Source: Elusimicrobiota bacterium
GTDB lineage: Bacteria; Elusimicrobiota; UBA8919
DNA length: 64,000 nucleotides
Assembly (NCBI GenBank): GCA_028718185.1
Contig: JAQUMH010000002.1
Span: 4,088-68,087 of the forward strand
Direction: 5' to 3'
Part shown: piece by piece, positions 3,498-44,230 of the stretch
Position numbering within the stretch: the first letter of the stretch is position 1
Layout: every line of letters starts with the position of its first letter
The notes under the pieces: model-generated
What the model was told of the DNA's origin: nothing
Databases searched by the model: none
The model's input: the letters and a program-made list of their open reading frames with translations, nothing else
Program-made: the position numbers and the translations under genes

Positions 3498-3588
3498 TTT
3501 ACCTCCTGTAAATTTTTACTTCAAAGCCTGTATGAAACTAATTGTCGGTCGGAGAATTTATGGGCTAATATATTTTAACCCTCATGCT

Positions 3589-3679: not shown

Positions 3680-3751
3680 CCAGTAATAATCTATATTTTA
3701 ACTTCAACAACAACCTCTATTCTTAACCTTTAGTTTTGTGACCGGCTATTT

Positions 3752-9439: not shown

Positions 9440-9525
9440 GAAAATTGTTTTAGTTATAGAGTTATAGGGTTTTTAGAGTTTAAATCCTAAAAACACTTTC
9501 TATAACCTTGCTTAACGAAATCCTT
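9440..9525. repeat. tatagagttatagggttttt agag repeat family, copy 2
   Basis: Shares a core of more than 20 nt with 1005-1075. Both copies are intergenic. Confidence 0.55.
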
Positions 9526-19264: not shown

Positions 19265-19520
19265 ATATAATCCAGTCTGTTACAAGTTAGGCAAAGCTTC
19301 GCTTTGCAGCTACAAACCAATTGATATTGTAGCCGCAGAGCGTTAGCTCTGCTAAATCATTGAAATCCTTATACTCGAGTTAACGCCGACCAAGGTCGGC
19401 AACTACATCATCATTGTAGTGGCAGAGCTTGCTCTGCCTGCATCTTTAATATTCTTACAAATATTTTAAATTTTGTCCCGCTCCAGTTCCGCGCCTGCCT
19501 GCCTGCCGGCAGGTTCCTTA
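19265..19520. repeat. cluster of at least five distinct REP-like hairpin modules in the trpS / M50-protease spacer
   Basis: gcaaagcttcgctttgc (19291-19307); attgtagccgcagagcgttagctctgc (19326-19352); gccgaccaaggtcggcaactaca (19385-19407); cattgtagtggcagagcttgctctgcc (19411-19438); cctgcctgcctgccggcagg (19494-19513). Several modules recur elsewhere in the window. Confidence 0.7.
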
Positions 19521-20165
19521 TCAGACACCCGTAAAAAGAAGCCCTTGCAAAACTGATACTATTGACCACAAAAAATTAAGAAAACCAAACGAAAGTAAAA
19601 TAAATATTATAATAATTCCATATCTTTCAAGTTGGTTATATTTATAAGCAATATGTGAAGGTAAAAACGCCGAAAGTATTCTTGAACCGTCTAATGGCGG
19701 TATCGGAATAAGATTGAAAACAGCGAGCACTAAATTTATCTGAACATTAATGTATAAAAGTTTTATAATTAAATTATTAACCGATGAATAGGGGTCAGCA
19801 CCTGTAATCTTGAAAAGCCAGATAATCAAAGCGGATAATATTGCCATTGCAAAATTTGAGCCCGGACCCGCAAGTCCGACTTTCGCCATATCTTTTACCG
19901 GATTATTAAGACGGTAATAATCTATCGGAACCGGTTTAGCCCATCCGATTAAAATTGGCGCATGAATAAGAATCAATAGCAACGGAAGTATTATTGTTCC
20001 CATCATATCAATGTGCGGGATAGGATTAAGAGTAAGACGCCCTTGCATTTTTGCAGTATCATCACCGTTTAAGTATGCAACCCAGCCATGACAACACTCA
20101 TGAACAACAACCGCAAAAAACAAAAGCGGTATAGCAAGAATTAAATCAACATTAGAAATATTCAT
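19521..20165 (-). CDS. M50-family membrane metalloprotease (site-2 protease-like, small form)
   Basis: 214 aa polytopic protein. HExxH in a TM helix (VVVHECCHGWVAY) and the downstream NLIPIPPLDGS motif. Confidence 0.75.
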   Translation of the reverse strand: MNISNVDLILAIPLLFFAVVVHECCHGWVAYLNGDDTAKMQGRLTLNPIPHIDMMGTIILPLLLILIHAPILIGWAKPVPIDYYRLNNPVKDMAKVGLAGPGSNFAMAILSALIIWLFKITGADPYSSVNNLIIKLLYINVQINLVLAVFNLIPIPPLDGSRILSAFLPSHIAYKYNQLERYGIIIIFILLSFGFLNFLWSIVSVLQGLLFTGV

Positions 20166-20202
20166 ATTTTTATATTATATTCATCTGTTAGAAAATGTCA
20201 AT

Positions 20203-20258
20203 AAAAAAATCCTCAATGTAGCAGTCGCATTACTATGCGACTTTAGTGAGGATTTCTT
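20203..20258 (-). terminator. rho-independent terminator of the giant surface-protein gene
   Basis: On the minus strand, a nested perfect hairpin (aatcctca...agtcgcat-tact-atgcgact...tgaggatt) is followed by a TTTTTTT run, about 140 bp after the stop at 20398. Confidence 0.6.
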
Positions 20259-20397
20259 ATTAATATCACAGTTCTAATATTTTATGCTAAACGAAACCTT
20301 GCGGATTTAGTGTATGCTTTCATTTTACCACTTAAGTTAACCAAGCTAACTCCTCTAAGACCCTAAGACTTTATAATTCTGGACTTCGAACACCTTT

Positions 20398-26300: not shown

Positions 26301-29300
26301 TGGGAACTTCTTCATCAAATGAAATATTTATACTAGAACCATGAGAAACTACCTGACTCCAATACTTGTAAGTTGTCCATGGGCCATTTGAACTATTGCC
26401 GTATTGCAAGTAGATATTAGCACCACAATTATTTCCATCTTTATGCCATACAGCAACACTTCCTACTACCCGTAATCTATAAAATTTATAATGCCATGGA
26501 TATATAGGTGGTACACCTTGAGGAGGTCCTGAACGACCACAAACAAACGCCCAAGTGTTTCCATACCCAGCCCATGCAGGCCAGACAAGAGTACTATCAT
26601 TTCTATCATTTGCATTTGTCCAAGATGAACTAGGAGCAAGCGGATAATTACCCGAAATATCATCGTATTGTTCATGTATTGCATCCACAACATATTGACT
26701 AAACTGAACTTTATTATCAGCAATTATAAGAGTAGGTGTTTTTTGCCCATTATAAAAAGTAGAAATATCATCATATTTTTTGGTACATATCTTAACATTA
26801 CCCGACTCTGAATTTAGGTCAATATTACTTATGCCTCCTTGTCCAAAATCTTGTTGTGATGTTTGTATCCACGACTGTGCAGCATGTGTTTGCACAGTAG
26901 CAGAAAATGATTGCGGTGAATAATATTCCCCCTTTTTTACAGTTGCGGACCAGTTGAAATTAGAAGACCCTTGATTAACTGAATATGGTGCTGGTGAAGT
27001 AATTTCTGCTAACCCACTTCCTGGTCCTCCAATAACTGCAATTGAAACTGACGCGGAACCTTTTGTCTGGTCATCTACTGCAATAACATCTATCTTGCAA
27101 GTATATAACCCTTCTACAATACTACTCCAGACTGTTGTATACTCTGTCAACCCAGATGTAAATTCATTATCAACCATCTTTACAAGATTACCTACTGTAT
27201 CATAAATAGTAATATATACTGTAGCTGCTTTTGTCAGTTCATATGTAATTTGGACTGGTTCATTTAACAAGACATCTGATTTGTCTGATTCAAATTTTGT
27301 AATCTTTAGTGGTTCTGTTATGGTTACATTTACATTTACACTAACAGATTTCTTATCCATCCCGAGACCGTCTATATCTACTGCTGTTAATTGTATCCTG
27401 TAAATCCCATTTTGCACATACTGTTTTCTAAAATCCTTACCATCCCACTGTATTGTTTCACCAGCAGTTTTATTAAAATATTCTGAATGTAAAATTACCG
27501 GACCAAATGTGTTGACATCAACCATCTTAAAAATATCCAGTACCACATTTGACTTTTTGCCGGTATTCTGCATTAAAGTATATGAGATATTCAATTTATC
27601 ATTTATTGTGGTTATATTAAACACCTGGTCAGAAATAGGTGCTGTGATATTAAGTATCGGCTTGTCAGTTTCTGGAATTGTATTGTCCACTTTTACCGAT
27701 ACTGTTATTGCACTGTAGTTTGATGGCATAGCACTATCCTGTGCAACCAATAAAATTGTATAGGTACCATTTGGTAAAGATGATACATCCCAATACGCTA
27801 ATGTTGAATTTAGTATTGCTCTGTATGATGCATTAGAATTTGGATAATTTACATCATTTGGACTTTGATTTGACACAGGTACTGGTATCGATTTCCATAC
27901 ATTCATATCTGGACTTATGTAATTGTCTGGTGTCGCATTACTATAAGTAGCATACCATACTTTGTAACACAAAAAGTCAATATTATCATTTACTACTGGA
28001 TCTATTGCTATACCAACTATTTCTACTTGATTACCAACTATGCCATTAAATACTGGTGACACTATTTGGGCAGGTATCTGATTTTTTATTACATTTACCG
28101 TCTCTTCTGCTTTATTTCCTACTTCATCTGTTGTCTTTATTTTTATAACATAACTTCCATCACTTGCAAAACTGTTATCTTGTTTCTTTCCATCCCATGT
28201 ATAGGAATATAACACATCTTTTTGTTTTACCTCGGATATTGGACTTCGGACTATCTGTCCTAATATATCTTCAACAGCTACCTCTACTGTTGCATTATCA
28301 CTTATCTTATAATATGCTGTTACAGTATCATTTTTAAGTTCTGGATTAAATATTTGTATATTTGTGTAAAGTGTGGTTACAAATGACGGTGTTCTATCTA
28401 TCTTAAATGTTTGCAATATTGGAATCGTATTGCCTATATTTCCAGATTCATCTGTTGCTTTTAATCCTAATGTATACTCTCCATCAGACGCAGTATTCCC
28501 CAACGCATCTGTCCCATCCCAAGCATATAGAAGATTTTGTGTTATATTCGGTGTAACTACAAAATCTGTTACTTTTGTAAACAATCTTGTTCCTGATGTA
28601 AAAGTAAAACTCACCTTTGCTGATGGTGAAAATCTATCAAATATATCAAATGATATATCTACACTTTTATCATTTTTAGTAAAAATATTATGGGAATAAG
28701 CACCAGGATTTATATATATACTGCCATTTGATACCTGTGGTGGTGTTATGTCTACAATTATATCGCCTTCATATACCTTTAAGTTCTCTGCCTCATCAAC
28801 TGCTGTTATTTTACATTTGTAAATCCCTTCTGCTACTACTACCCCATTGGTATTTTTACCATCCCATATATCTAAATTTGCCCCTATATTCTTTGAAATA
28901 CTATCAATAAGTGTTCTTACTAAATTATTCTGTAAGTCATATATTTTTATTGTTGTTTTAATCACTGTTGAGAAATTATCCGATAAAGTATAATCTATCG
29001 TTGTTGCCTCTTTTATTCCATCACCATTAGGTGAGAATGCAAGACAGGAATAACTCGTTATATCTGGTGGAGTTATATCGTATCTCAACGTAACTGTTGC
29101 ATTTTTAGTGTAGTCAGTATTTCCAGCATTATCTTTAAGCCAGATATATAATATATTATTCCCTTCAACAACAGAGAAATTGGAAGTAAATGTTTGAGTA
29201 TTAGGAATATAATTTGCAGGTTCCGTATTTAACTTATAATATGCTCCTGCTATTCCTGATAAATCAGAAGGAGTTGACCATGATATGGTAAATTGTGTCT

Positions 29301-32300
29301 GGTTTGTCCAACCGGATGGTGAAACAGATAAAGATTGTGGTTTATCTGGCGGGGTCGTATCTACTATTATTCCATCACTGCTAACCGGGGTCTCGGAACC
29401 AGCTCCATTTTTCGCTTTCACTGTAAAATAATAAATACCGTCATCTAAAGGTGAATCAAATGTCCTAGTTATATTACTAAGTGTTCCTGTTGATGTTAAA
29501 GCGATAATATTATACCATCCAGTATTCGGATATTGTGATGTTCCTATTGCATATTGATATTCCACAATTCCAGAGATATCCTCGGTAAAACTCCAATTAC
29601 AAGAAAGTTGTGTGTTATTGTTTGTATATAACCCATCATTAATTGATACACACATTGGCGAAGTTGTATCAATCATTACACTGCCTCCTGTTAGCCATGC
29701 ACTCCATCTACCTGCCCCATTTTGAGCACGAACTTTTGCAAAATATGATTGACCATGAATAAGACCATCTACAGTATAATTTGTTTGACTATTTGGAACA
29801 TCTGCTTGTGCTATTAGGCTATCTGTGATGCTATTATAAATTGCAATATTAAAATTAGATATACCACTTTCCATATCGGTAGCAAAATCGCCTTCCCATG
29901 TAAATGTTACTGTTGTAGAAGAGGAATAGGCACCTCCTGCAAATCTTGGTGCCTTTGCAGGACCACTAGGCATTTCTGGGTCTGTTGTATCAAGATAAAT
30001 TTCATCCTTTATTTCTACTATAGAAATATTTCCTGCTTTATCTTTATATCTCGCCCATACCGTTTTATTACCTGCTCCTGCTGTCAACCACCAAGGAGAA
30101 TAAATATGTGTATACTCAATCCAATCTCCAATAAAAATTATTCCATCATAAGAAAACTGCATCCAACCAACTTCACTATTATCTGAAACTGTGGAATACA
30201 AACTAACTTGCTGACTACCTGTAAAATTTTCTAACGGTGCAAATGTATCTCTAATAAGTAAACTTCCAATCGGTGGGGTAACATCAATCATAAACTCTTT
30301 ACCAATAGTTGGTGTAACATTTGTAGCAATATTCTCTCCAATATCTTTTCCACTTATGGTAACGGAAACCATTCCTTCAACACCAGGACCAGAAACAATA
30401 TTTACTTCACCTTTATACACATTCCCTGATACAAGTATGGTTGCTACTTCTGTTTTATCATTCACAGTACCAGGAGCATCTATACTGAATGTTGGGTTGG
30501 CAGATAATTGTTCACTTGCAGTTATTTTTAGATAAATTGTTTGTGCTTTAGTTATTGGCTTTCCTGTATAAGTTGCTAATGGTTGTGTAAGATTTGAATC
30601 TGCAAAATATTCTACTGTGAAATTTGGTGGTATCATTGCTATTAAAGAGTAATCTAAATTATTAGCAAAAGCGTCTGTATTGCTTGGTATAACAATAACT
30701 TTGGAACAAGTTGTATCAAAATTGGAAATGGATACGGTATTACCAGTTTTATTTAAATCATTTTGTTCTTCTATAGTGCCATCCATTTTAACTTTCAACA
30801 CTTTGCCACCCCATAATGGTGTAACTACTGATGAATCAAAATTAAGGAGAAGCGTTTGTGGAGTTGGTTTATCAGGTGCTGGACGAAATTCAAAATAGTG
30901 ACTTGCAAGATGCATAACAGTATTAACTCCTGATGGGTATTGGTATTTAGCAGAAGTATCTAAAACTGTTATCTTCGGATAAGAATTACCTTCAATATAA
31001 TATTTAGAAGCATCATAATTCCAAACAGTAAATGTCTTAAATTCATTAGATAAACTTGTTCCATGACCTGATATTAATTCGCTATCAATTGCCGACAAAG
31101 AATCGGTAGTTTTACATATATCCCAAATCTGGCGAATTATATCTTTCTCATTAAATCTCTCGGAAAAATATTTTGCAAAAATACAGGAACCGTATTCATT
31201 CCAATCATTTATATAATCCAATGATTGAGTAGAATTTGCAAACCAAGATGGCTTTCCAGCAAATCCTTTAAGATATTGTAAATAGTCATTTACATTAGGA
31301 TAAATTTCATCTTCCATCCAGACAGATGTAGCTTCATTCCACCAATAATTATCATCTCTTGGATTATAACTACATTTAACAGCATGAAAAAACTCATGGG
31401 CGGAGGTAATCTGCATAGCATCTGTACCATGTGTATAAAATTTATCACCAATATAATCATTGTCTACCTGAATTATAGAACCTAAAATTGGATGTTTATA
31501 TGCAGTGCTTCCATATGCGCCATTTCCTAAATTTAAAATATAAACAGGTAATTTATTTTCAATTACAAAATATTCTGATGGTGGAGATTCATAACCATAT
31601 GAACCAGGTTTCACTATTTGGTTCCAACTATATTCAAAATACTGTCCAAAATTATATACATAATCGGGAATACCATTGTGTGATTGCCAACCTGCTGAAT
31701 TGACCTGATTAACATCAGGATTTGAAATTGTATATGCTCTAAAATGAAACTTAAAATTAGTGGTTTTATAAACGCCGTAAGTGTAATATACATCTTTTAT
31801 ATTGCTAACATTACCAGCAACATCCCACACTTGTATCATTATATGATTTATTCCTTGGCGAAGATTAATATTATCAAACGATTTAGTATCATTTGTGCCA
31901 TTTACGTATTGTTCTTTTGCTGGTCCTATTTCTGGTATTACCACTATTTTTTCCAATTGAATCGTATCTGACACAGTAACATTTATTGTTATTGTTTCAT
32001 TTTCTCCTTGATTTTGGTCAGGAGGATTAAATGAGACCACGGTAGGTTTAGTTTCATCAAGTATAATGGAAGTGGAAACAAAGGATGATATATTACCTGC
32101 ATAATCTTTAACTCTAAAATATATTGTTTTTGCACCTTCGCCAGTAGAATTAATATAATAAGATTTTGATATAGAATAATCTTCCCAAGTTGATGGCCAA
32201 TTATTAGAATCCTCAGTAAATTGCATTTTCGCCACACCGGAAGTTGCATCACTTGCTAATAACGCTAATGTAATAATTCTATTATTAGTAAATCCCGTAC

Positions 32301-32976
32301 CAGGAGAAGTAATTAAAACAGATAATCCACTCGGAACTGTTTTGTCTATCTTTACAGTTTGTGAATGAGTGGCTTCGCCATTACCAGTATTATCATATGA
32401 CCAATAGTAAACCGTATGCTCTCCATTAGCCCCAATTGCGAATGGCGTAGTGTAAGTTTGAGCAGACAAGTCACCATCAACCAGGTAAAGCGTTTTATTA
32501 ACTCCAGATGTTACATCATAAGCATTTAACGTTACCGTAACATCCGATTTATACCAACCATTTTCGCCGAATGTCCCTGATAAATTACAAGTTGTTGATG
32601 GCGAATATGTATCAAGGGTTATGCTATCATTTGTACTTCCTATATCAGTTGGGGAATAAGTAGTTACAAACACTTTCATATATACCGTTTTATTGCCATC
32701 TCCACTGCCTCCACCGTAAGCAGTCAAGTCCCAGCTGTATTTTATAGAACTTATTCCTTCCCAAGGGGACCATGACGAATTGTTGTTACTGAATATCATC
32801 CATTGAGCATCGGACGGTATATTACCGATGGTTAGCGTTGTGTATTTATAATTTGTATAATCAGCACCCGAGTTGATGTTCAAAGTTAAACCTATTACTC
32901 TTTGAGCGAAAGAAAATAAAAATACAAAACCTATAAAACATCTTAGTAAATAATAAAATTTAAATTTTTTATACAT
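20398..32976 (-). CDS. giant (4192 aa) secreted multidomain cell-surface protein with a T9SS-type C-terminal sorting domain; putative adhesin/S-layer-like protein with an embedded zincin motif
   Basis: N-terminal signal peptide (MYKKFKFYYLLRCFIGFVFLFSFAQRV). HEFFH...NEAT...E zincin-like motif near aa 525 (nt about 31384-31398). Many Ig-like, FlgD-Ig-like and fibronectin-III domains. Three near-identical about 245-aa repeats of FN3 plus a CBM4/9-like domain (nt about 21300-23720). C-terminal about 85 aa (VYPNPYKPN...GVYIYQIRDATGRKKTGKVGLIK) matches the Por_Secre_tail (TIGR04183) pattern. Confidence 0.7.
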   Translation of the reverse strand: MYKKFKFYYLLRCFIGFVFLFSFAQRVIGLTLNINSGADYTNYKYTTLTIGNIPSDAQWMIFSNNNSSWSPWEGISSIKYSWDLTAYGGGSGDGNKTVYMKVFVTTYSPTDIGSTNDSITLDTYSPSTTCNLSGTFGENGWYKSDVTVTLNAYDVTSGVNKTLYLVDGDLSAQTYTTPFAIGANGEHTVYYWSYDNTGNGEATHSQTVKIDKTVPSGLSVLITSPGTGFTNNRIITLALLASDATSGVAKMQFTEDSNNWPSTWEDYSISKSYYINSTGEGAKTIYFRVKDYAGNISSFVSTSIILDETKPTVVSFNPPDQNQGENETITINVTVSDTIQLEKIVVIPEIGPAKEQYVNGTNDTKSFDNINLRQGINHIMIQVWDVAGNVSNIKDVYYTYGVYKTTNFKFHFRAYTISNPDVNQVNSAGWQSHNGIPDYVYNFGQYFEYSWNQIVKPGSYGYESPPSEYFVIENKLPVYILNLGNGAYGSTAYKHPILGSIIQVDNDYIGDKFYTHGTDAMQITSAHEFFHAVKCSYNPRDDNYWWNEATSVWMEDEIYPNVNDYLQYLKGFAGKPSWFANSTQSLDYINDWNEYGSCIFAKYFSERFNEKDIIRQIWDICKTTDSLSAIDSELISGHGTSLSNEFKTFTVWNYDASKYYIEGNSYPKITVLDTSAKYQYPSGVNTVMHLASHYFEFRPAPDKPTPQTLLLNFDSSVVTPLWGGKVLKVKMDGTIEEQNDLNKTGNTVSISNFDTTCSKVIVIPSNTDAFANNLDYSLIAMIPPNFTVEYFADSNLTQPLATYTGKPITKAQTIYLKITASEQLSANPTFSIDAPGTVNDKTEVATILVSGNVYKGEVNIVSGPGVEGMVSVTISGKDIGENIATNVTPTIGKEFMIDVTPPIGSLLIRDTFAPLENFTGSQQVSLYSTVSDNSEVGWMQFSYDGIIFIGDWIEYTHIYSPWWLTAGAGNKTVWARYKDKAGNISIVEIKDEIYLDTTDPEMPSGPAKAPRFAGGAYSSSTTVTFTWEGDFATDMESGISNFNIAIYNSITDSLIAQADVPNSQTNYTVDGLIHGQSYFAKVRAQNGAGRWSAWLTGGSVMIDTTSPMCVSINDGLYTNNNTQLSCNWSFTEDISGIVEYQYAIGTSQYPNTGWYNIIALTSTGTLSNITRTFDSPLDDGIYYFTVKAKNGAGSETPVSSDGIIVDTTPPDKPQSLSVSPSGWTNQTQFTISWSTPSDLSGIAGAYYKLNTEPANYIPNTQTFTSNFSVVEGNNILYIWLKDNAGNTDYTKNATVTLRYDITPPDITSYSCLAFSPNGDGIKEATTIDYTLSDNFSTVIKTTIKIYDLQNNLVRTLIDSISKNIGANLDIWDGKNTNGVVVAEGIYKCKITAVDEAENLKVYEGDIIVDITPPQVSNGSIYINPGAYSHNIFTKNDKSVDISFDIFDRFSPSAKVSFTFTSGTRLFTKVTDFVVTPNITQNLLYAWDGTDALGNTASDGEYTLGLKATDESGNIGNTIPILQTFKIDRTPSFVTTLYTNIQIFNPELKNDTVTAYYKISDNATVEVAVEDILGQIVRSPISEVKQKDVLYSYTWDGKKQDNSFASDGSYVIKIKTTDEVGNKAEETVNVIKNQIPAQIVSPVFNGIVGNQVEIVGIAIDPVVNDNIDFLCYKVWYATYSNATPDNYISPDMNVWKSIPVPVSNQSPNDVNYPNSNASYRAILNSTLAYWDVSSLPNGTYTILLVAQDSAMPSNYSAITVSVKVDNTIPETDKPILNITAPISDQVFNITTINDKLNISYTLMQNTGKKSNVVLDIFKMVDVNTFGPVILHSEYFNKTAGETIQWDGKDFRKQYVQNGIYRIQLTAVDIDGLGMDKKSVSVNVNVTITEPLKITKFESDKSDVLLNEPVQITYELTKAATVYITIYDTVGNLVKMVDNEFTSGLTEYTTVWSSIVEGLYTCKIDVIAVDDQTKGSASVSIAVIGGPGSGLAEITSPAPYSVNQGSSNFNWSATVKKGEYYSPQSFSATVQTHAAQSWIQTSQQDFGQGGISNIDLNSESGNVKICTKKYDDISTFYNGQKTPTLIIADNKVQFSQYVVDAIHEQYDDISGNYPLAPSSSWTNANDRNDSTLVWPAWAGYGNTWAFVCGRSGPPQGVPPIYPWHYKFYRLRVVGSVAVWHKDGNNCGANIYLQYGNSSNGPWTTYKYWSQVVSHGSSINISFDEEVPTPFYAPYFKILVQPHNSNHGAYLFLNSIEGYQKRYENTGVFISQEHDTYSYSPIWNLFQTSDENNVGYLGGAHITYRIASYNSSGENINWEAAPIVENGVVPSLGQKRYFKWRADFATRDLQTTPVIYNVTQNFGLVGTLISQAHDCKTAPSSWRNFEVSEYKPSGTNITYTTQTSDDGYSWESERTATPGQPIYSTPRKYIRWKATLSTNDGSKTPVLREVKINANYEPSVTVNNTCYNGHDTYNSIEEIRIPYDYIPSSSPYTFVTQTNPKVLKTIVEERGLLELKATTNEKESWDMTTDDQGLPEHKIISKNNEFNNSGNNLQADFVIEGPFEPTVADRYRPITISAAYPLVNMNNPDEIKNKYTFWKQNGTTIDNPYVWIDADNYDTQKQWDIKLQYPDGTMCNDLVVDKKLTKASNTDSNDINDDFTVKISTDEAAPKRFVEIKGSAFGSDFKGYSMFYQKTGDTILKTIPVISTQPVSNNTLSFWDVSGLNGEYKIKLYVFAGNGVKEIEQTVYVGKQVFPGEHKYVSAPWNKAYLEFYTDSLLQPTTVSITPVKLSDTDIIVDTGMPLPLGALFDMEPKDIQFNKDGNGKLVAPAVLTVRFLPEEVTNVDIGKLTAYHVDSNGKVKPTTLTSLGWKKDASGKNDIFEVSCEVVGFSQYLIIPQVPIPEFDANISTITNQQYITITGVVEAVADVTVYNDGASLKTVKADSNGRFSAEISLSEGANPIFAKTTRWFNNIPFDSPKSKITSITRDTTLPQITNLSVSAAVISPDGARIKSEISFVLSKESVINVEIYNNDVLTRALISNLAVPAGNYSCEWDGKNTIGQNVSSGTYTCKVNIIDLAGNASSATTEFEVMSDTTPPIMTNVASSDITWNSAVINWLTNEPSDSQVEYGLTTSYGNSSVLDTVKVTNHSVNITGLTSGTVYHYRVKSKDTAGNLATSEDNSFTSDINFISNHSFELGTSSWTFYTEEAGSFVTTSPGFDGSKSARCTIIKSTGNLQLYQKDIVLNPNTRYRLTFTAYSNTGRDMTLHVFKHGTPYTNYGLSNYLANLTTTWQTFSTEFVTTGFSSVVTDARLMFWYAPYAVAGDVYYVDDVHLETVPPDTTPPIIVSVTSCDITWNSALVNWITNEPSDSQVEYGLTTSYGNSTVLSTVKLTNHSANITGLMPGTVYHYRVSSRDESGNFSTSEDNTFTSDINFISNHSFESGTTSWAFYTEEAGSFVTTSPGFEGSKSARCTITKSTGNIQLYQTGICLNPNTRYKLTFTAYSNTGHDMTVRVFKHGTPYTNYGLDNYLANLTTSWQTYSTEFVTTGFSSVVTDARLMLWYAPYAAAGDVYYVDDIHLETVPPDTTPPIITSVTSSNITWNSAVINWLTNEPSDSQVEYSTTTLYGISTTSDTTKVTSHSVNITGLTLGTTYYYHVTSKDGSGNIATSENYTFSTLSTSSGTNHVINAGFESGTDSWAYYAGGGGTFISTTPGFEGAKSAKCTITAANGNIQLYQTGICLNPNTRYRLIFTAYSPTRHAVTVHLLKHGTPYTDYGLNYTANLGTSWQTFTTEFITTGFTAPVTDGRFRFWFTPYATAGDTYYIDDVRLETVTGLATPPKPIIKYSNTLKSYYYEDGPTLDTASLDPAITVSSLKFKAQVYNTNDNNPTTDYSGTLTLSTKNSKTGILNVADAILTKEDTGEREISIPFNSEIETVSVTGDSMLPTLTNINDMYLAKPIGNNGGMIKGVNKLKIIVSENVLTETRNLAVIKTKTPAVVRNAARYVDTVKPISYDFGRLSFTNKTSVLEEDIFTKPISITIPYTLVDIGELKEEGLRIYSWNGREWELVPGVHIVDKLNKTITANVKRFTTYRILGSYLATDLSNVKVYPNPYKPNMAVGGKLKVINLPINSEMKIYTVSGELARELKEADFGNLGWLEWDGKNDDGDKVARGVYIYQIRDATGRKKTGKVGLIK
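21300..23720 (-). repeat. intragenic triple tandem DNA repeat (about 740-bp unit) encoding FN3+CBM-like modules of the giant protein
   Basis: Near-identical segments recur with about 740-bp period, e.g. gtctcaag(a/g)tg(t/a)acatcgtctacgtaatacacatc.cctgct.ctgcatatgg at about 21490, 22245 and 22980. Confidence 0.7.
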
Positions 32977-32981
32977 AAAAA

Positions 32982-34172
32982 CTATTGTTTTTTCTTAATT
33001 AAAATAATATTTATTTCCTTTGTGCTGGTATTCCCATAACAATCAGTGGCAACTACTTTAACTTTATTTACTCCTTCTTTTTGAAGATATGGTTTAATAT
33101 CATCCAAAGAATATACTTTTTTTCTGAAGCTAGTAGTAAAATTATATGGGGACCCAAAACTTATACGTTTGTTATTAGAATATGTGCATAATAATGTTGG
33201 ACTACTATCTCCATATATAAACTTTATTGAACCATATATCTTGCCTTTCACATATTCTTCATATGGTATCTCATCAAACTTTTGCCCATCTTCTACACCT
33301 TCTATCTCTATTGTGGGTGGGGTAATGTCTGTTTTGGCTTTCGGTGGATAAACAATCCAAACACTATCAAAATCCTCTTGCATCGCAAACTTACTTCCTT
33401 CATTCTCTGCACCAATACTAACATTCCAGATTCCTGTTGATGGTAATACCCCCGTCTCACTGAAATTATATATATTTTGTCCAGGAGGACCATATAATTC
33501 TACAAGTCCAGGTTTATCTTTAAACTGTTCTTTAAATTCAAGATAATATTTTCTACCTCGTTCTTTTCCATACATCTTCTCTTGATATATTTCTTCCGGT
33601 AATATATGTTCCACTTTAGATAATTTTATCTTTTGTTTTTCTGTTATACTTACATCTCCAATTTTTATCCAAGCATTTGTTACATTATAAACCTCTGGCG
33701 TTTCTATTGTGCCTTTTATTACTATATTAGACGAATCTACCACTTCACTATCTTTTGGTTCAATTATCTTAACAATAGAACTTTGCTCGCTATAAAAATT
33801 TAATCTATTTTTCCATGTTATTATTTTTATTTTCTTCTTGTTCACCTCACTTAACTTATTCCATATATTTTCTAATTCTCGTTGAATATCTAATGTAGAA
33901 TTCTTTTTCTGATACAATCGCATATTAGGCTTCTTATATTTTTGAGGTAAAGAATCAGGATCATTTATGCAGTAGAACTTATACATAAATGCCGTCTCTT
34001 CATCTATAATTCCTGCATGCCGATCATCTTCCACCAAATTCCACGACCTTTTTTCACCAGGGTTAGAAACCGCTTCCCTGGCAAACATTATGCCGATTCC
34101 TCCAATCAAATCAACAAATAAACAAATTAACACCCACTTGTTAAACAATTTTCTTATCAACATTTTTTTCAC
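32982..34172 (-). CDS. hypothetical membrane-anchored protein, co-operonic with the giant protein
   Basis: 396 aa. N-terminal signal-anchor helix (WVLICLFVDLIGGIGIMF). The stop lies 6 nt from the giant-gene start. The C-terminus resembles a small Ig-like beta domain. No recognisable catalytic motif. Confidence 0.4.
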   Translation of the reverse strand: MKKMLIRKLFNKWVLICLFVDLIGGIGIMFAREAVSNPGEKRSWNLVEDDRHAGIIDEETAFMYKFYCINDPDSLPQKYKKPNMRLYQKKNSTLDIQRELENIWNKLSEVNKKKIKIITWKNRLNFYSEQSSIVKIIEPKDSEVVDSSNIVIKGTIETPEVYNVTNAWIKIGDVSITEKQKIKLSKVEHILPEEIYQEKMYGKERGRKYYLEFKEQFKDKPGLVELYGPPGQNIYNFSETGVLPSTGIWNVSIGAENEGSKFAMQEDFDSVWIVYPPKAKTDITPPTIEIEGVEDGQKFDEIPYEEYVKGKIYGSIKFIYGDSSPTLLCTYSNNKRISFGSPYNFTTSFRKKVYSLDDIKPYLQKEGVNKVKVVATDCYGNTSTKEINIILIKKKQ

Positions 34173-34260
34173 CTCTATTTTATCTAAAATATTATTTTAT
34201 TTTTCCTAAATCTGTTTTAGTTTTATCACCAAGTTTTACTGGTTTTGTCTCTTCAAATAA

Positions 34261-35262
34261 TCACTCGCTTCCAAAACTATAACCAATTGATACTCTTTGG
34301 TTTGGGTTAAGTGTTTCAACCAAACCAATCCCATAATCAACTTTTAATCCTTTCATTTGGAAACCTGCGCCAAGAGTAACCTTATCAATATCATATCCTA
34401 CTTTATAGCCAAATCGCAGAAATACTGTTTCTTTGAAACTATACTCAATACCAATGTTTTCCCTTATATTACTTTCATTTGGTTTAACTGTGTCAATGGC
34501 AATCAAAAAACTGTGATTTTGTAATACCGTTTTATTATATGCTATTCCTAACCTTATGTTCATAGGAAGTGCGTCTCCCTGTTCAATGTACTTCAGTTTT
34601 GTCCCTACATTTTGAACAGCAAGTCCTGTTGAAAGTCCATCAACGGTTGTATAATATAAAATACCAAAATCCACTGCATATGCAGTCCCTGAATATGTTT
34701 CTACAAGTTTGGATGAAAGATACTTTGCAGTTAACCCTAATGAAAAATTATTGAAAATTTCTTTGCCATAACCTATTGTTCCAACTATATCCTGCTGTGC
34801 TTTAACATTCCTTGAAGTACCATCAAGATTATTCCATTCAAAATTACCACCATCATAATAAAGAAAACTTGCTCCAAAACTGCCTATTCCATTTGATGGC
34901 GTTCCTACCCATCCAACTAAACCGTAATTTTCATCTACTCTGCCTTTTAAATACATACTCGCTATTTCATTACCTTCTATATTTACCAAACCTGCCGGGT
35001 TATAATAAAGTGCATTTGTGTCATCACATACAGCAACAAACGCTTCACCCATACCTACAGTTCTGGCACTTACTGTCTGATTTAAAATCCTTGCACCGGA
35101 GGTACCAGAACCAGCATAAAGACAGGAAGTAGGGAGTAGGAAGTAGGAAGTGGTAAAGGCAATAAATAAAACCAGAGATTGCCACGAGCCAATTGACATC
35201 GGCTCTCGCAATGACTTCCTTTCTAAAATTTCTCTAAACATAACACACATCCTAAACATCAA
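34261..35262 (-). CDS. outer-membrane beta-barrel protein, PorP/SprF-like (type IX secretion cargo-attachment family); true start probably internal
   Basis: 333 aa. Signal peptide, then LYYNPAGLV (NPAxaG-type motif near the N-terminus), alternating amphipathic beta-strand pattern, aromatic C-terminus. The size fits PorP/SprF. It lies between two CTD-bearing cargo genes. The 5' end overlaps a MITE fragment and ggaagtagg direct repeats, so MSIGSW... may be the true start. Confidence 0.45.
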   Translation of the reverse strand: MMFRMCVMFREILERKSLREPMSIGSWQSLVLFIAFTTSYFLLPTSCLYAGSGTSGARILNQTVSARTVGMGEAFVAVCDDTNALYYNPAGLVNIEGNEIASMYLKGRVDENYGLVGWVGTPSNGIGSFGASFLYYDGGNFEWNNLDGTSRNVKAQQDIVGTIGYGKEIFNNFSLGLTAKYLSSKLVETYSGTAYAVDFGILYYTTVDGLSTGLAVQNVGTKLKYIEQGDALPMNIRLGIAYNKTVLQNHSFLIAIDTVKPNESNIRENIGIEYSFKETVFLRFGYKVGYDIDKVTLGAGFQMKGLKVDYGIGLVETLNPNQRVSIGYSFGSE

Positions 35263-35285
35263 CGTTTATCAATTTTGCTTGGCAC

Positions 35286-38200
35286 TCATTTCACAACGCA
35301 AATCTTTTTTGTTTGTTTGAATCCTGGTCCTTCTATATGAATATAATAAATTCCTGAAGCAACTACTTCTTCTTCACTATTTTTACCATACCAATTTTCT
35401 GAATATGTTCCCGCAACCACATCCTTATCAACAAGTGTTTTTATAAATACACCGTCTATCGTGTATAGTTTTATTGTTATATGTCCTGCCTGTGGTACAC
35501 TGTAATAAACTTTACAAATATCACCTTTTATTGGATTAATCACATTATTTACAGGCAATATATGGTCTTGTTCAAGTTTTGCCTGATGCGAAGAATACAG
35601 ATTAACCAAATAAATATCACCACCATAATTACAAACCACTTTTGTACCGTCGAGTGAAAATCTTGAGTTATCATACCCAAAAACATAAGATGCAGGAGTA
35701 AGTTGCTGCCTTTCAGAACCATCAGGATTGGAAATAACAATTTTACGATTCAATAAGGATTCATCAACATATGTAATTTTTGAACCATACCAGTCAATAC
35801 CCCATTTAGTGAGTTGATAAACCATACCAGTTACTGTATCAATTACTCTATCATAATTAACAACTTTTGTAGCATCGGGAGACCATCCGATATCCCATAT
35901 GAACCATATATTACCATCTTTTGTGATTTGTGTGTTTGTTCCATTCTCGTATATCCACAAATCACCATTATAATAATAGGCAACTTTAGAACCAGAAGGT
36001 GAGTAAATCGGATAAGACCCAATCGCAATTTTTTGTTTACTTGTACCATCACTGTTTATAATGTATGTTCCTGAAACACCGCTTATTGTCCCAAAGAAAA
36101 CAACTTTTGTTCCATCTGATGAGAATGACGGTACACTATAGGAAACAAAATCAGGAAAAGAAACAAGTTTGATAAGCGAAGAAAAGTTACTAATAACAAG
36201 TTCAGTTCCTAAAATGAATGTAATTTTTTTATTATCCTGTGACCATCCGATATAATATGTTGGACTGGCGCTATCAACAGAATAAACCGAATTCCCATAA
36301 ATATCTTTCACTTTTACATAATATCTACCATTATAAAGATAAGAATACGCAACTTTAGTGCCATCGGGCGATAATACTTCAGATAAAAACGATGTTGTGC
36401 TAGTTTCAATCAGTGTCTCATTTTTCCCATTCACATCAATAGACTTTAATTCTTCTCTGTCTTCATAATTAGCATTATAAATAATTTTTTGTCCAGCATC
36501 AACCAAATTAAAGTAATAAGATAAGGTATTATTTGTAAGATTTTTCTTATTAGTAGCATCTGTTTTTATCGTATATATATTTTGTTGACTGCCACAACCT
36601 ATACGATCGTTGGTAGGTGAGAATGCAAAAAAGTCATAATCTTCAACAATTTTTATATTTCCGGTTCCATCACTGTTTATGATATAACATGAATTGGAAT
36701 CAGCGTAATAATTATAACCGAGATAGCAAACCTTTGAACCATCAGGTGACCATTTAAATTTATAGTAGTAGTATCCAGCGGTTGTTGTTAACTGTATATT
36801 TCCGGTTCCATCAGGATTAATTGTGTAAAGGTAATCACTTGGAGAGGAACCATAACAGTAAACAATTTTATTAGTAGCTGACCAATCAGGGAAACTTCCA
36901 TCACATAAATAATTTGGCGCACCACCTGTTGACGTTATAATATTTATATCACCTGAAAAATAATATACAATTTTATTACTATCAGGTGCCCATGAATAAC
37001 CCGCCCAACACTCTGCAAGATACATATACCCTGTTCCATTAATATTTATTACTGAAAGCCTATTACTATCTTTAATAAATGCTATTTTTGTGCCATCAGG
37101 TGATACTTTAATATCTTCCATTGTTGATGTAGATGTATATATTACAGTTTTTCCTGAACCGTCATTATTCATAGTACATATAGAATAATTTAAAACGGTA
37201 TCATTTGCTCTGACATATATAATTTTGCTCTGCCCGAAAATAAACTTTGCACCCAACTCAACATATTCATCATTCGTAATTTGTTTTTTATTAGAACCAT
37301 CTGCCGACATAATGTAAAGGTCAACACCATTTTCATTATTCAGTGAATAGACAATTCCTGCTGATGACCAGTCAAAAGCAGTATATTCGGCACGGCTTCC
37401 GGTTAATCTTGTTGTCCAACCTGCAGTTCCTTTTGCTGTGCTTTCAATCGCAATCCCTGTAAAATTCTGGTCTGTTTGATTCGCTGAAAGATTAGAATAA
37501 CTTTTACTTTCCGGTGAGAATGTATAATTTGTCTTTGTCGGTGTAACAGTAAAATTCCCTCCTTCAGAAATACCTGTGAATTTATAATATCCTGTTGCTG
37601 TTGTAGTCGAAAATCTTAAATCTGCACCAGTTAAACACACCAGAACACCATTGATTGCTGTCCCTGAATTATCTTTAACATAACCCGCTATTGCAAAAAG
37701 TTGAGGGGTAGAAACATCGGGTGCATCAATAGAATATGTGGCTCCAATTGCTAATGTATTCCATTTATCATATGCTTGAAAATAATATATATAATCAGTT
37801 CCGGAGGATAAATTTGTAGAATATGTAAAGAGTTTGCCATCAGAATATGAGGTATCGTTGACATCAACTTCGTTCATTATATAGGTTTTTGTTCCTTGCC
37901 AACTCGCACCTAATGCTGTGGATATTACAACTCTTGGATAATATGATTCTGGAGCATCATCATCGGCATCTGTATATTTTACTCTACATGTGAATATTGT
38001 TGAAGGACTGCCTGTTTCAGGATTTAAGCCATCAGAAGTATAATTTGTCTCACCTGTCCACGAAAGCACAGGTGCTGTATTGGTAGAACGATAATTAAGA
38101 TACCCTGACCAACTATTATAAGAAAATTTAAGTTTCAGGTAATATATCTGTGATGATGTTGCATTATAATTAAATGGATCACCAGATGAACTACTTGCTA

Positions 38201-38510
38201 CTTGATTTGTTCCTGCAGAATCGCTGTAGAGGTAAGCATTGCAATTATTGGAATAATTGGTAAAAGAAAAATAATATATTGTGCCTGCTGTCATTGATAT
38301 CTTAAACCAATCTGTTGTATCTGTTGCAGATAAATCGTGTGGTCCATCTGATTGGGTAGTTGCGGTAGGTGTTATAACTGTTCCATTTACTGCATTATCA
38401 TCTGTCGGATCCCATGCATCTGCATAAAGATAGGTAAAGAATATAAATTGAACTAAAAAAAGAAATAAAATGTATTTTATGCAACAGGGAAACTTTAATC
38501 TAATCTTCAT
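35286..38510 (-). CDS. secreted multi-PD40 (TolB-like WD40-like beta-propeller repeat) protein with CarboxypepD_reg-like domain and T9SS-type C-terminal sorting domain
   Basis: 1074 aa with a signal peptide. Repeated SPDG(T/S)K(V/I)(A/C)(F/Y) PD40 signatures (at least 8). IAGYVKDNSGTAINGVLV... matches the CarboxypepD_reg fold. The C-terminal 80 aa (KVYYSVPQAGHITIKLYTIDG...SGIYYIHIEGPGFKQTKKICVVK) match the Por_Secre_tail pattern. Confidence 0.7.
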   Translation of the reverse strand: MKIRLKFPCCIKYILFLFLVQFIFFTYLYADAWDPTDDNAVNGTVITPTATTQSDGPHDLSATDTTDWFKISMTAGTIYYFSFTNYSNNCNAYLYSDSAGTNQVASSSSGDPFNYNATSSQIYYLKLKFSYNSWSGYLNYRSTNTAPVLSWTGETNYTSDGLNPETGSPSTIFTCRVKYTDADDDAPESYYPRVVISTALGASWQGTKTYIMNEVDVNDTSYSDGKLFTYSTNLSSGTDYIYYFQAYDKWNTLAIGATYSIDAPDVSTPQLFAIAGYVKDNSGTAINGVLVCLTGADLRFSTTTATGYYKFTGISEGGNFTVTPTKTNYTFSPESKSYSNLSANQTDQNFTGIAIESTAKGTAGWTTRLTGSRAEYTAFDWSSAGIVYSLNNENGVDLYIMSADGSNKKQITNDEYVELGAKFIFGQSKIIYVRANDTVLNYSICTMNNDGSGKTVIYTSTSTMEDIKVSPDGTKIAFIKDSNRLSVININGTGYMYLAECWAGYSWAPDSNKIVYYFSGDINIITSTGGAPNYLCDGSFPDWSATNKIVYCYGSSPSDYLYTINPDGTGNIQLTTTAGYYYYKFKWSPDGSKVCYLGYNYYADSNSCYIINSDGTGNIKIVEDYDFFAFSPTNDRIGCGSQQNIYTIKTDATNKKNLTNNTLSYYFNLVDAGQKIIYNANYEDREELKSIDVNGKNETLIETSTTSFLSEVLSPDGTKVAYSYLYNGRYYVKVKDIYGNSVYSVDSASPTYYIGWSQDNKKITFILGTELVISNFSSLIKLVSFPDFVSYSVPSFSSDGTKVVFFGTISGVSGTYIINSDGTSKQKIAIGSYPIYSPSGSKVAYYYNGDLWIYENGTNTQITKDGNIWFIWDIGWSPDATKVVNYDRVIDTVTGMVYQLTKWGIDWYGSKITYVDESLLNRKIVISNPDGSERQQLTPASYVFGYDNSRFSLDGTKVVCNYGGDIYLVNLYSSHQAKLEQDHILPVNNVINPIKGDICKVYYSVPQAGHITIKLYTIDGVFIKTLVDKDVVAGTYSENWYGKNSEEEVVASGIYYIHIEGPGFKQTKKICVVK

Positions 38511-38746
38511 ATTCTTTACATCCAGTTTAATAATATCTGTTTTAAAATAATTATAAATATTTTAAGAACTTTGTCAAGTATTTTCCTTATTTAGCAAATT
38601 TTTATGTGCAATTATTAACACTATTTGCCAACTACTAGTTGATTATATTATTTTATGGTTACATTCTTAAATAATTTGTCAAGAGGTTATTTGTATATAT
38701 TGTTGTGCAATTATCGATATAATTAATTAATAAATATTTATTTATT

Positions 38747-38868
38747 ATCCCGATTTTTATTTATAGAATTTGTTATCGGGATTGTGTTCTCGGTCGTTTC
38801 AGCAGAGCCGACCTCCGAGCACTAACCCGATTTTTATTTATGGAATTTGTTATCGGAATTGTGTTTCC
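38747..38868. promoter_or_regulatory. two 41-bp direct repeats, each followed by a GC-rich hairpin, in the 730-bp AT-rich leader of the surface-protein operon
   Basis: DR1 (38747-38788) cccgatttttatttatagaatttgttatcgggattgtgtt; DR2 (38824-38865) cccgatttttatttatggaatttgttatcggaattgtgtt. Each is followed by a GC-rich palindrome (ctcggtcg...cgacctccgag; ccgagcatagactcgg). Upstream, tttgtcaag and tgcaattat motifs each recur. Confidence 0.5.
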
Positions 38869-39244
38869 CCTGATACTACGGGATCATGTTCTCATCCGGG
38901 GCAGCAGCTCCGGATTCCGAGCATAGACTCGGTCGATGCAATTGCTCCGGACCATGTGTGTTAATTTTACTAAACTGCAATTATTCTGTCAATGACCTAA
39001 TGCCACTTTTTTATGACTTTTTTCCACTATATGAAATTAATCGGTTCTGCATATTCAAATCCATTATAAAATAAAACAAACAATCATCCTCAACTATTAA
39101 CATACTTAATTAGACGAACAACTTGCAAAAACTCTGCACAATATATTTTCTCTCGACAAGTCTCGGAATTATTTTTTAGCTTTCAGAAAAGGGGACAGAA
39201 AAAGAGGCCACTTATTTAGAAGAAATACTACTTTTTAAGGATTT

Positions 39245-40285
39245 CTATTGTTTGTATTTTTTAGGTAGGCAGAACTTTTCTATAAAAGTGATTTTTTGTT
39301 CTTTTGTGAAATATTTTAGGAGTTTTTTTAAGCGTTTTTCAACAGGTTCTTGTTTTGGAGAGATTGCTGAGATATTCAAACTATTATCAATGATTTTCAA
39401 AATACCCCGCTTTTTAAATTCTTCCAGGATTTTTTTGGCTTTTTGTTCTTCCAGTGCTTTTACAAATTCATCCCTTATACGCGGTGCTGAAACCAGTGTT
39501 AGCAAGTTTCTCTTTATTGCAGATATCATCCATTTTTCTGTATTTTTTTCAAGCTTAAAACCAAAACGATGAGCATACCTTATTGCCCTTAGAATTCTGG
39601 TTGGGTCATCTATAAAACTGTTACTATGAAGCACACGAATTTGTTTTTTTTTAATGTCTTCTAAACCACCGTGTAAATCAATAATGTTATTAATTGCCAA
39701 GTTAGATTGCTTCGTCGCTCTGCTCCTCGCAATGACTACACTCTTTTTGTCATCGCGAACCGAAGGTAAAACAATCTCATAAACTTTGAAATTCCTAAAC
39801 ATCAAGTTAGATTCCCACTTTAGTGGGAATGATGAATCTTGGGAAAGCGGAAAGGCGAGGGCGTTGATTGTGAAATCACGGCGGAATAAATCGCTTTTCA
39901 AATTAGACGGGAAAACAATCGGCATTGAAGCGGGGGTTGGGTATTTTTCTGTTCTTGCTGTTGCAATGTCAATTACAAAACCATTTTTTAGCTTAAGGGA
40001 TGCTGTTAAGAATTTTTTATATATGTTAAGTTTTCCGCCGAGTTTTCCATGAATAACTTTTGCAACAGCTAATCCATCACCTTCTACCACCAAATCCAAA
40101 TCAATACTTTTTAGACCTAATACTTTATCACGAACATATCCGCCAACAATATAAATTTTACAATTAAATTGTTTTTCTGTTTTTCTTATAATTTCTACAT
40201 AATTATTGATTTTATTAAACCCCATATAAAACTCAGTCCTACTACAAGAATGGCAGAACCAATTATTGAACCTATTGTCAAACAT
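39245..40285 (-). CDS. cca: tRNA nucleotidyltransferase / poly(A) polymerase family (CCA-adding enzyme head domain) carrying an in-frame repeat-element insertion
   Basis: GGYVRDKVLG and RRDFTINALA motifs are present. About 50 extra residues sit between NALA and IIDLHGGLED. The likely true start is MGFNK (about 40225). The 5' end overlaps the downstream-oriented gene 40195-40659. Confidence 0.7.
   Translation of the reverse strand: MFDNRFNNWFCHSCSRTEFYMGFNKINNYVEIIRKTEKQFNCKIYIVGGYVRDKVLGLKSIDLDLVVEGDGLAVAKVIHGKLGGKLNIYKKFLTASLKLKNGFVIDIATARTEKYPTPASMPIVFPSNLKSDLFRRDFTINALAFPLSQDSSFPLKWESNLMFRNFKVYEIVLPSVRDDKKSVVIARSRATKQSNLAINNIIDLHGGLEDIKKKQIRVLHSNSFIDDPTRILRAIRYAHRFGFKLEKNTEKWMISAIKRNLLTLVSAPRIRDEFVKALEEQKAKKILEEFKKRGILKIIDNSLNISAISPKQEPVEKRLKKLLKYFTKEQKITFIEKFCLPKKYKQ
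39695..39855. mobile_element. MITE copy inserted in-frame inside the cca coding sequence
   Basis: The insert carries the modules catcaagttagattcccactttagtgggaatga (cf. 44054-44088), gagattgttttaccttcggttcgcgatgac and gtcattgcgaggagcagagcgacgaagcaatct (cf. 3589-3679, 60920-60953). It is translated as FPLSQDSSFPLKWESNLMFRNFKVYEIVLPSVRDDKKSVVIARSRATKQSNLA without a stop. Confidence 0.65.
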
Positions 40286-42680: not shown

Positions 42681-42787
42681 TTTAATATACGCGAAACTGA
42701 CCTGCCTACCGGCAGGTAGGCGCTAAATGTTTTACGCCTGTTTTGCGCTCCTCTTTACCTCTTTGTTATCCACTAAGCTCCTAATCG

Positions 42788-42910
42788 AAGAGCGAAGAAG
42801 TTGTTGAGCAGAACTTCACGGAGTTCCGCTTAAAACATTCAGCGGAACGAGTGAGAGTGCCCCGACGTAACGTCGGGGACAACGGTTCTGTGAGACAAGC
42901 TCCCGAACGG
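42788..42910. repeat. about 130-bp conserved structured element, copy 2, upstream of the pilT paralog
   Basis: See copy 1. The variable hairpin ccccgacgtaacgtcgggg sits at 42860-42878. Confidence 0.6.
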
Positions 42911-43975: not shown

Positions 43976-44004
43976 TTATCCTCCTGTATTTTATCTATAT
44001 GAAC

Positions 44005-44230
44005 AAATTAGGCACGCCAAGGGCGTGCTACTACAAACATTGATATTCTTATTCATCAAGATAGATTCCCACTTTCGTGGGAATGACACGCCATGATAGA
44101 TTGTCATTCCCGAGTGTCTCAATCGGGAATCCACAACATCGAAATTCTTATGCATCAAGTTATGCCCGCCACTGAACCGTTGGCGGGCAACGACAAAAAC
44201 ATTGTAGTGGCAGAGCTTTGCAACTATATT
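44005..44230. repeat. mosaic of at least five palindromic repeat modules in the pilT / DUF2851 spacer
   Basis: ggcacgccaagggcgtgctactaca (44010-44034); catcaagatagattcccactttcgtgggaatgaca (44054-44088); tgtcattcccgagtgtctcaatcgggaat (44102-44130); gcccgccactgaaccgttggcgggc (44163-44187, reverse complement of the hairpin in the 3589-3679 MITE); cattgtagtggcagagctttgc (44200-44221). Confidence 0.7.

Follow-up and report, generated by a model that had tools for sequence, protein, structure and literature searches.

The non-coding region at 38511–39244 of a 64-kb stretch of Elusimicrobiota DNA (contig JAQUMH010000002.1; the whole stretch is called the window below) holds a GC-rich structured island (38746–38960), which is made up of two tandem modules and a degenerate third hairpin. 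This arrangement is genuine and not random; the hairpins are maintained, and a near-consensus promoter, P1, adjoins the island on the minus strand. The reading we favour, possible rather than probable and held tentatively, is that the island, transcribed from P1 into the downstream operon, would constitute a structured leader or small RNA specific to this lineage, with a second promoter, P2, serving as a bypass. The element belongs to no described family; it is an orphan structured element in a control region, and in this respect of an ordinary kind.

On the minus strand, the region extends from the stop codon (39245) of a gene of the CCA-adding/poly(A)-polymerase family (39245–40285; hereafter the CCA gene) to the ATG (38510) of a gene for a 1074-aa surface protein. 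The latter is followed by genes for a PorV-like 333-aa protein, a 396-aa protein and a 4192-aa protein, the four together forming an operon for surface proteins of ~18 kb. As stated by the original prediction, which a model had made from the sequence alone, the 734-bp gap is the longest non-coding stretch of the window (the second largest spans 60809–61353) and precedes this operon. Its assignment as the upstream control region of the four genes is supported.

Two tandem modules with compensatory changes

Each module combines a GC-rich hairpin with one copy of a 43-nt direct repeat. The repeat copies (38746–38788 and 38823–38865; neither they nor the island as a whole are assigned a strand) are identical at 40 of 43 positions and start 77 nt apart, as judged by sequence reading and a repeat finder, and not one of 100 shuffles of the window contained two matches to their 40-nt core. 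The original prediction had rightly recognised the pair, albeit with coordinates that were off by one base. Copy 1 contains an 8-bp inverted repeat, ATCCCGAT-N19-ATCGGGAT, whose loop is AT-rich. In copy 2, this inverted repeat is weakened by two of the three substitutions, so that the dyad is perfect in copy 1 only.

That the island stands out from its surroundings holds as well, its GC content being 40–53% across 38750–38960 versus 17–24% in the flanks. For the plus and minus strands of the island, the minimum free energies are −72.2 and −64.8 kcal/mol, respectively, and the z-score relative to shuffled controls is about −3.5 in both cases. Both of the palindromes said to follow the repeats are present, although their placement is less regular than proposed: hairpin H1 (38784–38822, given on the plus strand) shares the last five bases of repeat copy 1, whereas hairpin H2 (38886–38924, likewise on the plus strand) begins only 20 nt past copy 2, from which it is separated by an insert at 38866–38885 (TCCCCTGATACTACGGGATC; strand not assigned). 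This insert was delimited by sequence reading and a repeat finder and aligned by eye; together with the next ATGTT, it resembles the ATCGGAATTGTGTT segment, part of which would have been duplicated again. In H1, an outer stem of 6 bp is connected through an internal loop to an inner stem of nine positions, one of which is a T/C mismatch, and the hairpin is capped by an AGCA loop; H2 has the same architecture with six pairs altered on both sides. A second repeat pair, 38777–38821 and 38879–38923, which is 71% identical, spans the GC-rich hairpins. A further hairpin, H3 (38928–38950, no strand assigned; CTCGGTCG...CCGGACC), is weak and not significant (z −0.6 and −1.4) and looks like a degenerate partial module.

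H1 and H2 were compared by in-register alignment, the automatic MAFFT/RNAalifold treatment of whole modules having misaligned the hairpins owing to the 20-nt insert. Both hairpins adopt one common 15-bp structure in which 96.7% of the cells are paired. Six of the 15 pairs are altered on both sides with pairing kept (five from one Watson–Crick pair to another and one from U·G to G·U), and one single-sided change mends a mismatch. When the partners are slid by 1–3 columns as a control, pairing falls to 33–50%. The hairpins are identical at just 17 of 30 stem positions, compared with 9 of 12 unpaired loop or flank positions and 40 of 43 positions in the neighbouring repeat; the stems would therefore be kept by structure and the rest by sequence, which suggests that selection acts on the structure of the stems and on the sequence of the remainder. 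The compensatory changes in the hairpins fit a small RNA or structured RNA, the half of the suggested 'operator or small RNA' that has gained ground.

Exact, mismatch-tolerant and covariance-model searches of the 64-kb window returned no module copies beyond the two tandem ones. Terminal inverted repeats are absent from the island, as is a target-site duplication. Taken together with a duplicated promoter part described below, the modules indicate that the region grows by tandem duplication.

Promoters and a possible leader transcript

A sigma-70 consensus scan of the whole window with a cut-off of at least 11/12 yielded just three matches on the minus strand, all of them intergenic and two within 38511–39244. 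P1 (38964–38992, minus strand; TTGACA-17-TAAAAT, 11/12) stops 4 nt short of the GC-rich island, being located directly upstream of it on that strand, with a predicted start site near 38957. P2 (38550–38577, minus strand; TTGACA-16-TATAAT, 12/12) has its −10 box 39 nt from the ATG at 38510, and a degenerate duplicate of the P2 module, P2′, is found at 38642–38684 on the same strand (CTTGACAAA at 38684; TTAAGA-17-TATAAT, 10/12), the P2 and P2′ stretches representing a degenerate duplication of ~100 nt. The third match (20201–20174, 12/12) directly precedes an M50 peptidase gene and is kept in relatives. A simple terminator scan predicted no minus-strand intrinsic terminator between P1 and the ATG at 38510, and the minus-strand sequence after the hairpins is A-rich rather than U-rich.

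The short duplicated motifs to which the original prediction had drawn attention turn out to be related to these promoters. TTTGTCAAG occurs twice in the window, both times inside the region, and its reverse complement CTTGACAAA is the −35 box of P2 and P2′ on the gene strand. TGCAATTAT, which reads ATAATTGCA on the gene strand, is a locally enriched word: three of its seven occurrences in the 64 kb fall in these 734 nt, where ~0.03 would be expected. The three minus-strand words are located ~30 nt upstream of the P2 −35 box (38607–38615), ~22 nt upstream of the P2′ TTGACA box (38706–38714) and within the P1 spacer (38976–38984). By contrast, the idea that the repeat shares a regulatory word with the repeat tracts of the DUF2723 genes has to be abandoned. 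GGGATTGTG occurs once in the region, in repeat copy 1, while copy 2 reads GGAATTGTG; its nine other matches in the window are the (GGGATTGT)n tracts of three DUF2723/TMEM260-like paralogs. We regard this link as coincidence because the word is not conserved between the repeat copies and because chance alone should give 734 nt and 64 kb many 9-mers in common.

In the reading we favour, minus-strand transcription from P1 would start near 38957 and produce an RNA in which each module consists of a GC-rich hairpin, whose stem would be free to vary if pairing is kept, and a near-invariant 43-nt A/U-rich segment. With no intrinsic terminator on the minus strand past the island, transcription from P1 would most likely read through P2 into the operon and thereby provide it with a structured 5′ leader of ~450 nt; alternatively, the product may be a processed small RNA of ~210 nt. 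Such a leader could affect mRNA stability or elongation, or bind a protein via the invariant A-rich segments, while a transcript from P2 would carry a short leader that bypasses the island. While the repeats, the hairpins with their compensatory changes, the promoters and the lack of the element in relatives are documented, we infer that P1 is transcribed, which strand is functional and that there is any effect on regulation. A more elaborate version, in which a hitherto undescribed, lineage-restricted regulatory RNA with a promoter of its own and two modules, each made up of a hairpin with a variable stem and an A-rich stem-loop that is invariant and acts as a sponge or binds a protein, gates the recently acquired 4192-aa surface-protein operon through a switch between long-leader (P1) and short-leader (P2) transcripts, the choice being set by the ATAATTGCA sites, seems decidedly unlikely to us.

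If the island does function as a leader or small RNA, it would rank among the earliest regulatory RNAs to be put forward for Elusimicrobiota and be linked to an operon that is newly inserted and encodes a giant secreted protein; it would also illustrate how a control region can be built by tandem duplication. If it is merely another intergenic hairpin repeat, it would be a marker of an unusual repeat expansion in this lineage. The evidence comes from a single genome and makes the island a lead rather than a discovery.

Points of conflict and alternative readings

Several observations weigh against a leader or small RNA made from P1. The evidence on the strand conflicts, with the promoters favouring the minus strand and several features favouring the plus strand. 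The four non-Watson–Crick pairs of H1 and H2 (two per hairpin, of which one is kept and the other changes from U·G to G·U) read as G·U on the plus strand and would be C·A mismatches on the opposite one, although no more than three or four independent positions contribute to this wobble evidence. Folding of H2 on the plus strand is favoured by 5 kcal/mol (−21.1 versus −15.9 kcal/mol), the covariance model, which was built on the plus strand, scores 59 bits there versus 13.6 bits on the reverse strand, and a T-run follows the extended form of H1 on the plus strand only. Moreover, compensatory changes between palindromic copies can arise by DNA template switching in quasi-palindromes, without any selection on RNA. 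With respect to small-RNA targets, duplex energies against the 36 translation-initiation regions of the window were no better than those of shuffles. Homologues of the island were found neither in Rfam nor in 13 related loci, JGI metagenomes, IMG/VR, phages or plasmids. Specifically, Rfam 15 gave no match at the gathering threshold across the whole window, and at a permissive E-value limit of 10 returned only a CRISPR-DR66 fragment (16.7 bits) and SAM-II (15.7 bits), both far below threshold and in AT-rich sequence; a pattern scan of the JGI metagenomes gave seven chance hits, all in unrelated high-GC or coding contexts; two IMG/VR scans gave chance matches only; and blastn against phages and plasmids gave no match. 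There is thus no cross-species covariation. Finally, the other intergenic spacers of this genome are full of GC-rich hairpins, several of which recur in the window, and a hairpin island alone is therefore unremarkable here.

This last point leads to the alternative that the island is a generic intergenic hairpin repeat (REP, BOX or MITE-like) or a product of local slippage and duplication that has no specific role for the operon, a view we consider somewhat unlikely but take seriously as a rival. It draws on the expansion of the window's spacers, which measure 255, 230, 734 (plus a 19-kb block) and 256 nt as compared with 15, 3, 33 and 14 nt in the related locus L017, and on the hairpin families that recur within the 64 kb. 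One of these, a minus-strand element of ~125 nt termed Family A (12797–12917 and 42780–42906, 92–95% identical), has one internal hairpin swapped for another stem (GTCCAGC/GCTGGCAC versus TGTCCCCGACG/CGTCGGGGCA), i.e. it shows the same pattern of conserved flanks and a replaced stem as H1 and H2, and its hairpins are also the next-best covariance-model matches after these two, if weakly so and on the opposite strand (E 0.27). The local duplication of the promoter part (P2/P2′) and the absence of the module from all relatives examined fit this view as well, as does the general likeness to REP/BIME and BOX elements, which are short GC-rich imperfect palindromes of intergenic, modular, tandem and lineage-specific occurrence, in a genome rich in other such families. 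Unlike these elements, however, the module has no dispersed copy in the 64 kb, where each of the other families has 2–4, and contains a conserved AT-rich 43-mer that is far better kept than the stems, suggesting constraint at the level of sequence. Neither terminal inverted repeats nor target-site duplications accompany it, and no transposase or RAYT-like gene was seen among the open reading frames (ORFs) scanned with Pfam (29 of the 36 of at least 150 aa in the window, the 4192-aa gene and six others lying outside this set). In addition, the exact abutment of the island to a near-consensus promoter would be left unexplained.

The plus-strand features can be combined into a different proposal, which appears unlikely to us: the plus strand, antisense to all genes, would be the functional one, and the extended H1 hairpin with its T-run would be an intrinsic terminator that ends a short divergent or antisense RNA from the AT-rich stretch 38620–38710, or a one-way insulator that shields P1 and the CCA gene from plus-strand transcription. 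In this extended hairpin (38774–38842, plus strand; −26.3 kcal/mol, z −4.4), ATCGGG (38774–38779) pairs with CCCGAT (38826–38831), encloses H1 and is immediately followed by TTTTTATTTAT. The stable two-tier stem and T-run resemble intrinsic terminators in general and the minus-strand terminator after the 4192-aa gene (~20205–20260) in particular, and the ability of ATCGGG to pair with either the upstream CCCGAT (38749) or the downstream one (38826) could provide an attenuator-like choice. In contrast to typical intrinsic terminators, however, it is located on a gene-free strand, has a counterpart without any T-run after H2 in module 2, and was not called by the simple terminator scan, probably since the loop limit was exceeded. 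All 36 ORFs of at least 150 aa in the window are on the minus strand and none is on the plus strand, leaving no plus-strand gene to regulate or terminate, and no plus-strand transcription unit ending at the extended hairpin was identified. Plus-strand promoter candidates, including those in 38500–38745, reach at most 9/12, which is the chance level for such an AT-rich stretch (5.7 ± 2.9 per 951 nt); the candidate −10 boxes in the repeat, TAGAAT and TGGAAT, have no −35 box, and the latter lacks the essential A2. The AT-loop hairpin of copy 2, for its part, gives one U·G pair on the minus strand. Very unlikely, in our estimation, is that the 43-nt repeats are DNA-level operators or sites of an architectural protein, 77 bp apart and with ATCCCGAT-N19-ATCGGGAT half-sites, that control P1 and/or P2, the ATAATTGCA words being further sites. 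While the near-invariance of the 43-nt segment next to drifting stems and the clustering of ATAATTGCA at promoter-relevant spots would agree with this, the operator half of the original prediction found no positive evidence: copy 2 has a degraded dyad, half-sites of 8 bp separated by 19 nt would be unusual in an operator, the repeats are 90–210 nt downstream of P1 and ~170–290 nt upstream of the P2 −35 box, and the compensatory hairpins would go unexplained. No DNA-binding regulator is encoded nearby, and the cNMP/GAF protein that had been put forward for this role does not qualify, as it has no DNA-binding (HTH) domain in Pfam, is kept in relatives without island and operon, and predates the insertion. 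Extremely unlikely, lastly, is that P1 drives a leaderless mRNA for a 23-aa peptide (38955–38884, minus strand; MVRSNCIDRVYARNPELLPRMRT), for which the GC-rich hairpins would be coding region and 3′ untranslated region (UTR). The ATG of this candidate ORF is exactly 8 nt past the P1 −10 box, a spacing shared with the leaderless-looking M50 gene of the window and comparable in its relatives (TATAAT, 7–8 nt, ATG), but its prior is low: chance alone is likely to yield an open frame of 23 codons where the sequence is GC-rich, recognisable features are absent from the peptide, and H1 and both 43-nt repeats are outside the ORF. A phmmer search with a 64-aa plus-strand ORF of the island, which is in a different frame and not the peptide in question, gave low-complexity matches only.

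Comparison with known regulatory elements

Tandemly duplicated small-RNA genes are exemplified by PrrF1/PrrF2 of Pseudomonas and the Qrr paralogs. The island is similar to these in having two adjacent short modules with near-identical single-stranded or seed segments and stems that diverge with compensatory changes, as well as in its intergenic location next to a sigma-70-type promoter. As for a small-RNA gene, a promoter of its own, P1, is predicted immediately upstream. It differs in having a single promoter for both modules, in lacking a Rho-independent terminator on the P1 strand that would give a discrete 3′ end, and in showing neither target complementarity in the window (36 start regions) nor conservation in other genomes (13 related loci).

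Structured leaders of surface or envelope operons offer a second point of reference, e.g. the stabilising hairpins of the ompA 5′ UTR, or EAR and other processive-antitermination leaders of long exopolysaccharide operons. Here, too, a hairpin-rich sequence is placed between a promoter and an ~18-kb surface-protein operon on the same strand, in the minus-strand order P1, island, ATG 38510 and without an intervening terminator. Unlike these leaders, the island has no sequence or Rfam match and no NusG paralog nearby among the ORFs scanned, and a second consensus promoter downstream of the structure, P2, would bypass it. Nor does the gene strand offer an expression platform of the riboswitch type, given that there is no terminator, that 235 nt separate the island from the start codon and that P2 lies within this distance.

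Other classes fit less well. For a type III toxin–antitoxin (ToxI-like) array, the downstream gene would be expected to encode a ToxN/AbiEii-type endoribonuclease; it encodes a secreted propeller/FlgD_ig protein of 1074 aa instead. An invertible promoter is not indicated, the flanking inverted repeats being short, AT-rich and at chance level, and no recombinase was seen among the ORFs scanned. The same Pfam scans contained no Y1-family transposase. A sigma-54 promoter, an integration host factor (IHF) site, an attC site and domain V of a group II intron were considered by eye only, and none of them fits.

Absence from relatives and the surrounding block

Thirteen loci around the CCA gene from related Elusimicrobia made up the comparison set, and neither blastn nor the hairpin model detected the island in any of them; the operon is missing from them as well. 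As one part of what would speak against it, the original prediction named repeats that are unique and not conserved in relatives. This is what we see in the 64-kb window and the 13 loci, but non-conservation in relatives is a weak test here because even in the closest ones available the CCA protein next to the region is only ~60% identical and the operon is absent altogether.

The order of genes in the related loci is PilT, PilT-like, cNMP/GAF, a 154-aa gene and CCA. In five of them (L001, L003, L017, L018 and L150), the M50 peptidase gene follows directly after CCA, within 31–88 nt, and in a sixth (L151), an M50-type TTGACA box is present at the CCA stop, with the contig ending before the gene. 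Given this adjacency of CCA and M50 in relatives, 20166–39244, which comprises the region and the four-gene operon, is a ~19-kb insertion or a lineage-specific retention, with 38511–39244 forming the left end of the block that relatives lack; as a whole, the block is missing from 12 related loci. Still other relatives carry different material at the same site, i.e. a promoter and a 16-nt tandem repeat in L015, L016 and L002, and other sequences in L004 and L013; the site is therefore variable. Neither integrase, att-like repeats nor a tRNA were seen at the ends of 20166–39244, and the window as a whole contains no tRNA or tmRNA remnant and no att site. A similarity to L002 beside a run of N was dropped, as the sequence there is an unrelated tandem repeat of 16 nt in L015 and L016, two homologues without such a gap; the N-run of L002 is an assembly gap at this 16-nt repeat.

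As to the flanking genes, the window's CCA protein is 52–62% identical to its nearest homologues, which come from other Elusimicrobiota metagenome-assembled genomes (MAGs), and is longer than they are (326–346 versus ~280 aa), so that it appears to be a fast-evolving or remodelled copy beside the insertion point. The M50 protein, on the other hand, is 87% identical to its counterpart in L017. The M50 gene of the window has, at 20165–20201, a TTGACA-16-TATAAT promoter (12/12) with 8 nt between −10 box and ATG and looks leaderless. Counterparts of this promoter are found in L017 (4830–4900), L150 (1340–1450) and L151 (2820–2892), and the CCA gene of several relatives has its TGA stop inside the M50 −35 box. 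The 1074-aa secreted protein, which has CarboxypepD_reg, PD40 and FlgD_ig domains (Pfam), exactly matches an annotated entry of an Elusimicrobia bacterium MAG (locus tag PHE88_04785), and its sole full-length homologue is a paralog in the same MAG (P0002, 59% identical), where it belongs to a paralogous operon (PHE88_02420).

Other hairpin repeats and tandem tracts

Expanded, hairpin-filled spacers of the window are located at 3498–3751, 19265–19520, 42681–42910, 43976–44230 and 60809–61353. The two copies of the Family A element, which has no Rfam match, lie 60–100 nt upstream of unrelated genes, one GlgE-like and the other PilT-like. The two PilT genes are 3–87 nt apart in relatives, suggesting that the Family A element is an insertion. 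A second family, the Family B hairpin CCCGCCA..TGGCGGG, occurs at 3599–3623 and 44164–44188; CCTGCC..GGCAGG hairpins are found at 14015, 19498 and 42700, and GTCATTGCGAGC...GAAGCAATC palindromes at ~3660, 60870 and 61300. The latter two palindromes flank an ORF of ~95 aa (~60950–61240) that may be GIY-YIG-like.

Tandem repeats with a period of 8 or 16 nt constitute a further type of repetitive sequence. Intergenic examples are located at 1006–1072 and 9452–9480 in the window, at 4985–5055 in L015, and at 1060–1120 and 1570–1650 in L004. Downstream of the CCA gene in L015 and L016, (GATGCAGARCGMCAGY) ×4.5 follows directly after a TTGACT-17-TATAAT promoter. Within coding sequence, (GGGATTGT)n tracts of 8-nt period are present at 54213–54283, 56152–56246 and 58432–58462 in the three DUF2723/TMEM260-like paralogs, which are tandem glycosyltransferase genes. 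They encode IPQSHNP-type loops, and since adding or removing a single 8-nt unit would change the reading frame, they could be tracts for phase variation by slipped-strand mispairing.

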